A DNA stretch of 64,000 nucleotides from NCBI RefSeq assembly GCF_003334405.1, contig NZ_QOWM01000010.1; one strand, 5' to 3'. The stretch comes from Escherichia coli. Lineage in GTDB: Bacteria > Pseudomonadota > Gammaproteobacteria > Enterobacterales > Enterobacteriaceae. Positions 2,907 through 50,381 of this stretch are shown one piece after another; position 1 is the first letter of the stretch, and the number at the start of each line of letters is the position of its first letter. Position numbers and translations under genes: made by a program. The notes under the pieces were generated by a model, which was given only the letters and a program-made list of their open reading frames with translations, searched no databases and was not told the origin of the DNA.

Positions 2907-4214
<1,308 letters not shown>

Positions 4215-4462
4215 TCAAAAAATCACAGTGCTCGGTCAACTCTTACCCCGCAAGCACAGGTTGTTGGCTTCGCGGAACCGGGATGTTCTTATAATCAATC
4301 ACATTCCCTGTTACCAGAATCATCCCGAAAGCATTCAAATAGGACGCGGCATTATAGCGGCATCACTTTTATGAGTCGAGAACGGTTATTGCGCGCTGTC
4401 GCGTATTTTTTCACAATTCCCGGGCAATTTTCGTCTGAATGCTGGGCAAAAAGCGCAAAATC

Positions 4463-14044: not shown

Positions 14045-14140
14045 GCGAATTGCCTGCTGCGCTACGCTTATCAGGCCTACAAAGTTTCTGAATTACAAAC
14101 CTTTGTAGGCCGAATCAGGCGTTCATGCCGCATCTGACAT
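14045..14140. repeat. REP/BIME palindromic units (two inverted REP-like copies)
   Basis: GCCTGCTGCGCTACGCTTATCAGGCCTAC (about 14050..14082) and inverted TTTGTAGGCCGAATCAGGCGTTCATGCCGCATCTGACATG (about 14102..14139), in the convergent yajR/yajQ spacer. Confidence 0.6.
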
Positions 14141-46850: not shown

Positions 46851-48035
46851 ATGAAAAAAGTCATTTTATCTTTGGCTCTGGGCACGTTTGGTTTGGGGAT
46901 GGCCGAATTTGGCATTATGGGCGTGCTCACGGAGCTGGCGCATAACGTAGGAATTTCGATTCCTGCCGCCGGGCATATGATCTCGTATTATGCACTGGGG
47001 GTGGTGGTCGGTGCGCCAATCATCGCACTCTTTTCCAGCCGCTACTCACTCAAACATATCTTGTTGTTTCTGGTGGCGTTGTGCGTCATTGGCAACGCCA
47101 TGTTCACGCTCTCTTCGTCTTACCTGATGCTCGCCATTGGTCGGCTGGTATCCGGCTTTCCGCATGGCGCATTTTTTGGCGTCGGAGCGATCGTGTTATC
47201 AAAAATTATCAAACCCGGAAAAGTCACCGCCGCCGTGGCGGGGATGGTTTCCGGGATGACAGTCGCCAATTTGCTGGGCATTCCGCTGGGAACGTATTTA
47301 AGTCAGGAATTTAGCTGGCGTTACACCTTTTTATTGATCGCTGTTTTTAATATTGCGGTGATGGCATCGGTCTATTTTTGGGTGCCAGATATTCGCGACG
47401 AGGCGAAAGGAAATCTGCGCGAACAATTTCACTTTTTGCGCAGCCCGGCCCCGTGGTTAATTTTCGCCGCCACGATGTTTGGCAACGCAGGTGTGTTTGC
47501 CTGGTTCAGCTACGTAAAGCCATACATGATGTTTATTTCCGGTTTTTCGGAAACGGCGATGACCTTTATTATGATGTTAGTTGGGCTAGGGATGGTGCTG
47601 GGAAATATGCTAAGTGGCAGGATTTCAGGACGTTATTCACCACTGCGCATTGCAGCAGTGACTGACTTTATAATTGTACTGGCACTGCTGATGCTCTTTT
47701 TCTGCGGCGGCATGAAAACAACGTCGCTTATTTTTGCTTTTATTTGTTGCGCGGGATTATTTGCCCTTTCAGCACCGCTACAAATATTGTTACTACAAAA
47801 CGCCAAAGGCGGAGAGTTATTAGGTGCCGCAGGTGGGCAAATAGCGTTTAACCTCGGTAGCGCCGTCGGCGCATATTGCGGAGGTATGATGCTGACGCTG
47901 GGACTGGCATATAATTACGTGGCGCTGCCTGCCGCCCTGCTTTCGTTTGCTGCGATGTCGTCGTTGCTGCTGTATGGTCGCTATAAGCGCCAGCAAGCGG
48001 CGGATACTCCGGTGCTGGCGAAACCACTGGGGTAG
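46851..48035 (+). CDS. araJ: MFS transporter AraJ (394 aa)
   Basis: ORF track 46767..48035 trimmed to ATG 46851 (MKKVILSLALGTFGLGMAEFG). Confidence 0.9.
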   Translation: MKKVILSLALGTFGLGMAEFGIMGVLTELAHNVGISIPAAGHMISYYALGVVVGAPIIALFSSRYSLKHILLFLVALCVIGNAMFTLSSSYLMLAIGRLVSGFPHGAFFGVGAIVLSKIIKPGKVTAAVAGMVSGMTVANLLGIPLGTYLSQEFSWRYTFLLIAVFNIAVMASVYFWVPDIRDEAKGNLREQFHFLRSPAPWLIFAATMFGNAGVFAWFSYVKPYMMFISGFSETAMTFIMMLVGLGMVLGNMLSGRISGRYSPLRIAAVTDFIIVLALLMLFFCGGMKTTSLIFAFICCAGLFALSAPLQILLLQNAKGGELLGAAGGQIAFNLGSAVGAYCGGMMLTLGLAYNYVALPAALLSFAAMSSLLLYGRYKRQQAADTPVLAKPLG

Positions 48036-48051
48036 GTTATAGTCTCGGTGC

Positions 48052-48256
48052 TCATTACTTATTGCCGGATGCGGCGTGAACGCCTTATCCGCCCTACGCG
48101 GTTCTGGCACATTTTGCAGGCCTGATAAGACGCGGCAAGCGTCGCATCAGGCATCGGAGCACTTATTGCCGGATGCGGCGTGAACGCCTTATCCGGCCTA
48201 CGGTTCTGGCACCTTTTGTAGGCCTGATAAGACGCGGCAAGCGTCGCATCAGGCAT
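48052..48256. repeat. BIME cluster: two tandem ~100-bp units, each with a convergent pair of REP palindromes
   Basis: Unit A 48052..48153 and unit B 48160..48256 are near-identical (TTATTGCCGGATGCGGCGTGAACGCCTTATCCGGCCTACG ... GTAGGCCTGATAAGACGCGGCAAGCGTCGCATCAGGCAT). Confidence 0.8.
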
Positions 48257-48279
48257 GATGCGCCAATTGCCTACGTTTT

Positions 48280-49188
48280 TTACTCTTGTGGCCATAACCA
48301 CGCAGCGCCGCGTACGCCGCTGGAATCACCGTGCTTCGCCTTACGCACCGGCGTTTCACATTCGCCGCCGAAGACAAATTGTTTAATCAACTGCCCAACC
48401 GTTTGATATAAACGGTCTACATTGCTCATCCCGCCCCCCAGGACAATCACATCCGGATCGAGAATATTCACGACATGTGCCAGCGATTTTGCCAGCCGCA
48501 GCTCGTAGCGACGCAATGCCAGTTCCGCTACCGGATCGCTTTCTTCAACCAGGCGGATAATTTCACTGCCTTTCAGCGCATGTCCGCTCAAACGACGATA
48601 ATCCATCGCGAATCCCGTGCCCGAAATAAAGGTTTCAATACAACCTTGTTTACCGCAATAACAAGGGACTTCCTCGCGATAACGCAGTTCGTCTTCGTCC
48701 ATCCACGGTAGCGGATTGTGTCCCCACTCACCTGCCGTGCCATTGCCGCCGATATGCGCCCGCCCATTGAATGCCACGCCCGCGCCGCATCCCGTGCCGA
48801 TAATCACGGCAAATACCGTCTGCGCTCCCGCTGCCGCGCCATCTACTGCTTCTGAAACCGCCAGACAGTTAGCGTCATTTGCCAGCCGCACTTCCCGCTG
48901 CAACCTCGCGCTTAAGTCTTTATCGAATGGCTGACCGTTGAGCCAGGTTGAATTGGCATTCTTCACCACACCGGTGTAAGGCGAAATTGAGCCAGGAATG
49001 CCCATACCTACCGTTCCGCGCTGCCCCGTCGCCTGCTCCGCCATATCAACCAACGTGGCGATCGTTTCAATAGTCTGCCGGTAATCATCACGCGGCGTGG
49101 GCAGACGATGGCGGTACAACTGCTCCCCTGCATCGCCCAGTGCAATCACTTCAGTTTTGGTGCCGCCTAAATCGATACCTATACGCAC
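48280..49188 (-). CDS. mak: fructokinase/mannokinase Mak (ROK family, 302 aa, GTG start)
   Basis: ORF track 48280..49326; start placed at GTG 49186..49188 giving (M)[13 protein letters not shown], preceded by SD AAGGAGAG. Confidence 0.88.
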
Positions 49189-49312
49189 GGTACTCTCCTT
49201 ATTTTTTTCAATATTAATAGCGTAGAGACGGACAACCGGATTGGCAATGCAAGGCCGCCGACAATTCGTTATCATGCCCGCTAAATTTAACGACAAGGCC
49301 GTGGAAATTATC

Positions 49313-50224
49313 ATGCTGTGGTTCAAAAATTTAATGGTTTACCGTCTTAGCCGCGAGATTTCGCTGCGTGCAGAAGAGATGGAAAAACAGCTAGCCTCGA
49401 TGGCATTTACCCCATGCGGCAGCCAGGACATGGCGAAGATGGGCTGGGTTCCTCCGATGGGATCGCACAGCGATGCGTTAACGCACGTTGCCAATGGTCA
49501 AATTGTTATCTGCGCGCGCAAAGAAGAAAAAATCCTCCCGTCTCCGGTGATTAAACAGGCGCTGGAAGCGAAAATCGCCAAACTGGAAGCGGAACAGGCG
49601 CGTAAGCTGAAGAAAACCGAAAAAGATTCGCTGAAAGACGAAGTGCTGCACTCTCTGCTGCCGCGTGCTTTCAGCCGTTTTAGCCAGACAATGATGTGGA
49701 TCGACACGGTTAACGGTTTGATTATGGTGGACTGCGCCAGTGCCAAAAAAGCGGAAGATACGCTGGCATTACTGCGTAAAAGCCTGGGGTCGTTACCGGT
49801 TGTACCATTGAGCATGGAAAACCCGATTGAACTGACGCTGACCGAATGGGTTCGCTCCGGTAGTGCGGCACAGGGCTTCCAGCTGCTTGATGAAGCCGAG
49901 CTGAAATCGTTGCTGGAAGATGGCGGCGTGATCCGCGCGAAGAAACAAGATCTGACCAGCGAAGAGATCACCAATCACATTGAAGCCGGAAAAGTGGTGA
50001 CTAAACTGGCGCTCGACTGGCAGCAGCGCATTCAGTTTGTGATGTGCGACGATGGTTCGCTCAAGCGTCTGAAGTTCTGCGACGAGCTGCGCGATCAAAA
50101 CGAAGATATCGACCGTGAAGATTTCGCCCAGCGTTTTGATGCCGATTTCATCCTGATGACTGGTGAACTGGCAGCGTTAATTCAAAACCTGATTGAAGGA
50201 TTAGGTGGCGAAGCACAACGTTAA
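49313..50224 (+). CDS. rdgC: recombination-associated protein RdgC (303 aa)
   Basis: ORF track 49241..50224 trimmed to ATG 49313 ([15 protein letters not shown]). Confidence 0.92.
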
Positions 50225-50242: not shown

Positions 50243-50275
50243 TGCCGGATGCGACGCCTGCCGCGTCTTATCCGG
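50243..50275. repeat. REP palindrome after rdgC
   Basis: GCCGGATGCGACGCCTGCCGCGTCTTATCCGGC. Confidence 0.6.
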
Positions 50276-50381
50276 CGTACGAAGCCACACCAGGCATATA
50301 ATTATTCGCTACGGCGAGCAATAATTTTTAGCGCAGCAATATTATGCGTTTTACGCTGTAACTTGCTCCATGGACGTTGTG

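Follow-up and report, generated by a model that had tools for sequence, protein, structure and literature searches.

A two-unit BIME-2 array of strain-variable copy number between the convergent genes araJ and mak of Escherichia coli

What kind of repeat occupies the spacer between the 3' ends of araJ and mak in Escherichia coli, how did its copies come to lie side by side, and is it likely to matter to the two genes that are transcribed toward it? Repeats of the REP/BIME family have been described since the 1980s and 1990s. We addressed these questions in a window of 64,000 nucleotides (the whole stretch of DNA that was analysed, contig NZ_QOWM01000010.1 of assembly GCF_003334405.1), which corresponds by coordinate mapping to approximately 395-459 kb of MG1655. 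The two flanking genes are the following.

46851 to 48035, plus strand: araJ coding sequence (MFS transporter); stop codon TAG at 48033-48035, with the open reading frame ending at 48035; equivalent to MG1655 b0396, 411297-412481.
48280 to 49188, minus strand: mak coding sequence (fructokinase/manno(fructo)kinase); stop codon TAA at 48282-48280; equivalent to MG1655 b0394, 410144-411052.

The spacer that separates the 3' ends of these convergent genes (48036-48279, 244 nt) is base-for-base identical to MG1655 411053-411296. The whole array lies between the araJ and mak stop codons and is thus extragenic. In the 3.5 kb around the array only two positions depart from MG1655, neither of them in the spacer: an A for G at 47903, within araJ, and a T for C at 49215, just upstream of mak. 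The window therefore derives from a very close relative of K-12 and not from MG1655 itself. By megablast, the region was found at araJ/mak in all 5,426 complete E. coli genomes, and a 901-nt query containing the array had a median of 33 matching sites in each E. coli genome, as dispersed copies. Open reading frames crossing the spacer (e.g., 48059-48301 on the minus strand and 48076-48183 on the plus strand) were judged to be by-products of the repeats. No repeat_region feature is listed for the spacer in the MG1655 RefSeq annotation that was used, and a full-text literature search on araJ, REP and mak returned irrelevant papers only. In the supplement of a 2026 preprint (bioRxiv 10.64898/2026.03.23.713779), araJ/mak occurs only in an unrelated differential-expression row.

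The repeat itself was recovered in several ways. Tandem Repeats Finder returned a single array at 48057-48256 with a period of 102, 1.9 copies, 94% matches, 2% indels and a score of 363, and a repeat search gave two in-register segments, 96% and 98% identical, with spacings of 102 and 104 nt. The repeat unit is thus 102-104 nt long and is present in 1.9 head-to-tail copies. In a global alignment, the unit cores 48057-48154 and 48161-48256 were identical in 93 of 98 columns (94.9%), with differences consisting of three substitutions and one 2-nt indel. A first-pass annotation of this DNA had proposed that near-identical BIME units of about 100 bp lie in tandem in the araJ-mak spacer. This proposal is borne out, and the identity of the units stands well above a threshold of 80%. 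The interval of 48052-48256 that had been given for the array begins about 5 nt too far to the left and is otherwise right.

Each unit consists of a Y REP, a linker of 16-18 nt and an inverted Z2 REP, so that the two REPs face each other. Across the spacer, the parts run as follows.

48036 to 48063, no strand: left flank, 28 nt from the araJ stop to the first REP, ending in ACTTATT, 7 nt that are repeated in the inter-unit junction.
48064 to 48097, minus strand in the 5'-GTAG sense (GTAGGGCGGATAAGGCGTTCACGCCGCATCCGGC): Y REP of unit 1, one mismatch to the Y consensus.
48098 to 48115, no strand: short (S-type) linker of unit 1, 18 nt, GCGGTTCTGGCACATTTT; too short for an IHF site and containing none.
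48116 to 48152, listed as plus strand: Z2 REP of unit 1, one mismatch to the Z2 consensus; GCAG replaces the conserved GTAG.
48153 to 48167, no strand: inter-unit junction, 15 nt, ATCGGAGCACTTATT; a compact version of the 44-nt junction of 19% of genomes.
48168 to 48201, listed as minus strand: Y REP of unit 2, no mismatches to the consensus.
48202 to 48217, no strand: short linker of unit 2, 16 nt, GGTTCTGGCACCTTTT.
48218 to 48254, listed as plus strand: Z2 REP of unit 2, no mismatches to the consensus, GTAG present.
48255 to 48279, no strand: right flank, 25 nt, up to the mak stop; contains TGATGCGCCAATTGCC.

All four palindromes fit the REP consensus with 0-1 mismatch, against an expectation of 0.00 from 100 shuffles of the window, confirming the inverted REP pair that had been annotated in each unit. 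The Y-type REPs (48064-48097 and 48168-48201) read in consensus form on the plus strand as GCCGGATGCGGCGTGAACGCCTTATCCGGCCTAC, and the Z2-type REPs (48116-48152 and 48218-48254) on the minus strand as GCCTGATGCGACGCTTGCCGCGTCTTATCAGGCCTAC. GTAG is present in three of the four, the exception being the Z2 REP of unit 1 with its GCAG. A stem bubble (an internal mismatch) was seen in the fold of every REP, and the outer stems of the REP doublet, which is about 90 nt long, are complementary to each other over 17 nt at 88%. The Y REP of unit 1 carries one stem-foot substitution, GGCC to GGGC, that weakens its hairpin. The two degrading changes in unit 1, GCAG and the weaker Y stem, are consistent with weak or no selection on that copy.

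This anatomy bears on the family to which the array belongs. BIME-1 elements combine a Z1 with a Y REP across a long conserved L linker, often with an IHF site, and occur singly; BIME-2 elements combine Z2 with Y across a short S linker and occur as tandem copies, the number of which varies among strains at a given locus (PMC3333891). The array is a BIME-2 and has every sequence feature of that family. Its linkers are 18 and 16 nt long, versus 35 nt (28301-28335) in a BIME-1-like element of the same window. Allowing 0, 1 or 2 mismatches, we found no IHF core WATCAANNNNTTR in the spacer, where about two matches would be expected by chance (244 nt, both strands). Five exact matches to this core exist in the window and none in the spacer, the nearest (48396-48408) lying inside mak. 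Because the array is Y plus Z2 with short linkers and has no such core at up to two mismatches, the attribution of IHF binding to it in the first-pass annotation is not sustained and belongs to BIME-1.

Two other inverted REP pairs in the window were read alongside. The BIME-1-like element (28267-28364) consists of a Y REP at 28267-28300, the 35-nt linker and a Z1 REP at 28336-28364. Its linker holds a one-mismatch IHF core, ATTCAATATATTG, at 28313-28325, which makes it an in-window contrast to the araJ-mak array. The pair at 14052-14138 joins a Z1-like REP (14052-14080) to a degenerate Y-like REP (14105-14138) across a linker of 24 nt, and has no IHF core closer than two mismatches.

Next, we consider copy number across the species. 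Aligned spacers fall into at least three forms: the K-12 form of 244 nt, one-unit forms of 138-142 nt, and a two-unit form of 268 nt with a junction 29 nt longer. In spread samples, the 901-nt query spans 799, 901 or 925 nt. Unit-specific k-mers were used for counting, and a 119-nt junction-spanning query was dropped for this purpose because it joined repeated pieces and other BIME-2 loci competed for it. A 60-mer specific for the unit-2 linker, marking the K-12 two-unit form, was present at 99% identity or more in 1,327 of 5,426 genomes (24.5%; median of one per genome), and a unit-1-specific 62-mer, at 95% identity or more, in 3,877 of 5,426. The 44-nt long junction is locus-specific and was found as a single copy in 1,038 of 5,426 genomes (19.1%), including Nissle 1917. 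The remaining genomes, about 56% of the 5,426, appear to have one unit; in line with this share, 22 of 39 chromosomes in a systematic 40-row sample gave one-unit spans. No three-unit allele occurred in about 100 sampled rows, giving a range of 1-2 units, and no E. coli genome among those sampled lacked the element at this locus. The aligned alleles keep their REP hairpins near consensus while the linkers vary. Strain-variable copy number, as had been predicted for this spacer, is therefore confirmed by one-unit alleles and two kinds of two-unit alleles among the 5,426 genomes, and by an IS1397 insertion in one strain.

Two genomes show other changes around the locus. In the one-unit strain GPEC673, the annotation gives mak as a pseudogene interrupted by an internal stop (675-1195 of the extracted locus). 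In LR-29-1 (NZ_AP027515.1), an IS1A lies inside the 901-nt region and araJ is annotated twice, which suggests that the IS1A interrupts araJ and not the BIME.

The allele with the long junction is informative about how the array grew. In a pairwise local alignment, its two units agree in no more than 106 of 127 columns (83%), and Tandem Repeats Finder reported no array in this allele because the units are so far diverged and differ by indels. The similarity between its units extends leftward beyond the REP into unique DNA and takes in the final 11 nt of araJ (CACTGGGGTAG against CACCGGGG--G). This flank similarity scores 16, compared with 6.4 +/- 1.3 for shuffles, none of 5000 scoring as high. 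The long-junction sequence was found nowhere else in any of the 5,426 genomes. Since the long junction copies the unique araJ 3' flank and has no other location, the alignments identify the second unit as a local tandem duplicate of about 127 nt, with the araJ 3' end carried along and no insertion from elsewhere. The K-12 junction and the long junction have CATCGGAGCAC in common and are separated by one 29-nt gap. From this alignment we infer that the K-12 form derives by deletion, its units having later been homogenised (95% versus 83% identical). In one-unit alleles, such as that of EC2001, all unit-1-specific bases adjoin the right flank. Such alleles would be producible by unequal exchange within the 38-nt identical Z2 copies, although the change may instead have run in the reverse direction. 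Copy number probably changes by unequal recombination or slippage between these 38-nt identical Z2 copies or, alternatively, by cleavage and strand transfer by the REP-associated transposase TnpAREP (RAYT).

To place the arrival of the element, outgroups were scanned with a Mak protein query, one genome per species, and the loci were then read directly. A REP regular expression was too strict for outgroups, giving zero even in the E. coli one-unit allele. In Citrobacter, mak and araJ are convergent, with only about 4-15 nt between the stop codons and without a REP. At the same site, a single short hairpin is present in Salmonella enterica subspecies arizonae and diarizonae. E. albertii (NBRC 107761) and Escherichia sp. 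ESNIH1 have a single REP after mak and are without araJ in the roughly 2 kb read downstream of mak. Given these outgroups, in which Citrobacter is without a REP and the others have a single REP or hairpin, the BIME-2 at araJ-mak was acquired within the Escherichia coli lineage. Past the single REP in E. albertii and ESNIH1 (downstream of 2906), the sequence looks like the end of another gene, which we take to be possibly sbcC.

Mobile elements meet the array at one further point. In strain Z1002 (NZ_CP021202.1), IS1397 of the IS3 family sits in the central loop of a Z2 REP, between GACGCGTCA and GCAAGCGTC; it occupies 3437-4402 of the extracted locus, and its transposase is annotated as partial. 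According to the work cited as reference 10 of PMC3333891, IS1397 inserts specifically into BIME palindromic units. Y/Z2 BIMEs are substrates of TnpAREP in vitro, and TnpAREP binding needs GTAG (PMC3333891). Three of the four REPs here have the sequence features that this transposase requires (GTAG and a stem mismatch), and the motifs GGCC/TAC and TGCC/TGAT are present as putative CT cleavage sites, which a substrate should have in the inverted partner or the linker. The annotation of the array as a substrate of REP-associated transposases accordingly holds at the level of its class.

The folding of the array as RNA was also calculated. The Y REP of unit 1 gave RNA hairpins of -14.7 and -16.5 kcal/mol, depending on the strand, compared with about -21 kcal/mol for the other three REPs (-21.8 kcal/mol for each of the Z2 hairpins of units 1 and 2). 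Folding of the whole spacer gave z = -5.65 on the plus and z = -5.37 on the minus strand, and none of 200 shuffles was as good. The REP clusters start 25-28 nt past the stop codons, beyond the limit of 15 nt that is quoted for REP effects on translation.

A consensus scan of 47800-48500 called no intrinsic (Rho-independent) terminator on either strand. The only candidate, not called by the scan, is the hairpin that 48236-48271 could form, which is separated by 4 nt from a T6 run. In it, TGATGCGCCAATTGCC of the right flank can pair with the 3' half of the second Z2 (an inverted repeat with 81% complementarity; fold of -21.0 kcal/mol), and is followed by TACG and then by the T6 run, which overlaps the mak stop codon. 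On this pairing, the right flank could be what is left of a third palindromic unit, or else it could offer araJ an alternative fold that acts as a weak, terminator-like structure. The segment 48255-48285 is almost invariant among five aligned alleles.

A search with Rfam models added one feature to the spacer.

48119 to 48198, minus strand (the sense of mak mRNA): match to naRNA4 (RF02564), 79.8 bits versus a gathering score of 59.5.

The match is made up of the junction together with the unit-2 Y REP on one side and the unit-1 Z2 REP on the other. One-unit and long-junction alleles score at most 42.7 bits, below threshold; the match exists only in the compact allele because two units abut there with a short junction. 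By this score, only the compact K-12 form (24.5% of genomes) would make a complete naRNA4-type Y-linker-Z2 module in the mak 3' UTR. The match shows that the module shares its anatomy with the six Y-l-Z2 repeats of REP325 (PMC4550694), and does not speak for a role in the nucleoid. Apart from naRNA4, sraA (RF02029), at 522-617 on the plus strand (106.7 bits), is the one Rfam family at gathering score in the window.

Taken as a whole, we consider it probable that this is a two-copy BIME-2 array, a local duplicate and polymorphic, with a local role for its hairpins in the 3' UTRs of araJ and mak. By analogy with studied REPs, the most likely role of the array is to provide each of the convergent mRNAs with a hairpin cluster in its 3' UTR. 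Both genes would be transcribed into the array, so that two to four stable hairpins, each of about -21 kcal/mol, would stand at the end of either mRNA: Y-Z2-Y-Z2 in the case of araJ, and their complements in the case of mak. Such hairpins would most likely block 3'-to-5' exonucleases locally, and act as partial, probably Rho-assisted, bidirectional transcription stops. The parallels come from a preprint (bioRxiv 10.64898/2026.03.23.713779). In it, REP325 stabilises mRNA and is a partial terminator that depends on Rho, some 60% of the REPs of E. coli are located between convergent genes, convergent pairs with a REP are more highly expressed than pairs without, and 78 REPs coincide with mapped bidirectional terminators. 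Against a 3'-UTR role, the same preprint reports no general gain in mRNA half-life from a terminal REP. Also against it, no intrinsic terminator was detected here, the hairpins lie 25-28 nt past the stops, and unit 1 carries its two degrading substitutions.

Other readings of the locus place its function, if any, in the DNA. That the array is an IHF-binding BIME (RIB/RIP element) is improbable in the extreme: IHF binding is known for some BIMEs (PMC3333891), with nothing specific to this locus, and the array has Y plus Z2 rather than Y plus Z1, no long L motif, and not even the one-mismatch core found at 28267-28364. Recruitment of DNA gyrase, by which a BIME-2 array would absorb positive supercoils between converging transcription units, had been annotated as well. 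It agrees with the position of the array between convergent genes and with the class, as gyrase cleavage is over-represented in BIME-2, mainly in Y REPs, yet in a subset of elements only (Sutormin et al., PMC6379681). The array was assigned to the row 410303-410493 (190 bp) of Table DS3 in that study, to be compared with 48064-48254 (191 nt inclusive). The neighbouring row, 408277-408313, served as a second anchor, lying exactly 1,990 nt away, like a solitary REP at 50244-50280. This solitary REP (GCCGGATGCGACGCCTGCCGCGTCTTATCCGGCGTAC, a Y/Z2 hybrid) starts 20 nt past the rdgC stop at 50224. The table label 'BIMEs2' was rejected as a test of family, the list also including single REPs and the BIME-1-like element of this window (28267-28364), there 97 nt long (430193-430290; PMC6379681). 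In the row of the array, Topo-seq records one site with ciprofloxacin and none with rifampicin plus ciprofloxacin, microcin B17 or oxolinic acid (PMC6379681). As 0.19 sites per 190 bp are expected by chance (4,635 ciprofloxacin sites in 4.52 Mb; probability of at least one about 0.18), a single ciprofloxacin site is unremarkable. By contrast, strong arrays in the same table have 35 sites (tldD-yhdP), 11 (eco-mqo) and 6 (sucB-sucC) (PMC6379681). The gyrase claim thus stands for BIME-2 as a class and was overstated for this locus; the array appears to be at most a weak gyrase site, and we regard gyrase recruitment as its function as unlikely.

Two further readings concern the array as an RNA and as a repeat in its own right. 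It is conceivable, by analogy with REP325, that processing of the mak 3' UTR releases the Y-junction-Z2 module as an naRNA4-like RNA which, together with HU, bridges cruciform-forming REP DNA and condenses the chromosome. The naRNA4 match in the mak sense and the original model from REP325 (PMC4550694) speak for it. However, the Rfam model effectively fits any Y-linker-Z2 BIME-2 module, so that a match to it marks shared anatomy and not function. Moreover, deletion or over-expression of REP325 leaves nucleoid volume unchanged, and neither a stable HU-DNA-naRNA4 ternary complex nor REP-REP Hi-C contacts were observed in a preprint (bioRxiv 10.64898/2026.03.23.713779) whose authors include the senior author of the original naRNA4 study (PMC4550694). 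We therefore hold this reading to be very unlikely. More serious is the alternative that the array is a selfish or neutral REPIN-type hitch-hiker, amplified by RAYT or by slippage, with no local role and a drifting copy number. It is a serious alternative given the decay of unit 1, in which GTAG and some of the Y stem are gone, and given that the majority of strains, apparently about 56% of E. coli genomes, have one unit. The absence of the element from Citrobacter, the mere 83% identity of the units in the long-junction allele and the missing general effect of terminal REPs on half-life (bioRxiv 10.64898/2026.03.23.713779) point the same way. On the other side stand its presence in every sampled E. 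coli genome, REP hairpins that stay near consensus while linkers vary, and the higher expression of REP-bearing convergent pairs genome-wide (bioRxiv 10.64898/2026.03.23.713779). We judge strict neutrality to be possible, though doubtful. It is also compatible with a mild local effect and is not strictly exclusive of the 3'-UTR hairpin role that we favour.

If the hairpins act at the 3' ends of araJ and mak mRNAs, the three alleles (one unit; two units with the 44-nt junction; two units with the 15-nt junction) might amount to a natural series by which 3'-end formation or stability of these mRNAs is tuned between E. coli lineages, a speculation to which we give little credence. The locus could in any case serve as a natural one-unit versus two-unit test case for the model of REPs as local 3'-UTR regulators.

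The array is already known, being an ordinary BIME-2 that appears in published genome-wide tables for K-12 (PMC6379681), and its significance beyond housekeeping is little. The earlier interpretation was mostly right, correct in kind (a tandem BIME of variable number, of the class of RAYT substrates) and wrong on IHF. What the present analysis adds is the following: 1) the IHF attribution is corrected, the array being BIME-2 and not BIME-1; 2) copy-number polymorphism at one locus is quantified over 5,426 genomes; and 3) it is shown that a BIME array can grow by ordinary local duplication that drags along unique flank, and not by transposase-mediated insertion.

Comparison with known systems places the array as follows. 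With BIME-1 (RIB/RIP) elements it shares the inverted pairing of two REPs, one of them a Y REP; the Z1 REP, the long L linker with an IHF site and the single copy, which are BIME-1 features, are all absent here. The doublet of inverted REPs is likewise shared with the REPIN-RAYT system, in which such doublets are mobilised by the RAYT, a domesticated IS200-like Y1 transposase (TnpAREP/yafM in K-12). In contrast to that system, the second copy here has unique flank including the araJ end and looks like a local duplication rather than a transposase-mediated insertion. The RAYT gene is outside this window; the K-12 tnpAREP gene (yafM) presumably lies outside the range of about 395-459 kb of MG1655. 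Closer in anatomy is the REP325/naRNA4 array between yjdM and yjdN (RF02564; PMC4550694), which has the same Y-linker-Z2 module, the present array matching its Rfam model above the gathering score, and is the best-studied case of a 3'-UTR terminator and stabiliser role. REP325 differs in having six repeats inside an operon between tandem genes and a different linker, whereas the present array has two units between convergent genes. From the BIME-2 family in the Gilson/Bachellier classification (summarised in Ton-Hoang et al. 2012, PMC3333891) there is no essential difference. The array is small, with two units compared with about six in others, and its unit 1 departs by GCAG for GTAG and by a weakened Y stem. 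It shares with that family the inverted alternation of Y and Z2, the short linker, the tandem copies, the extragenic site between gene 3' ends and the strain-variable number.
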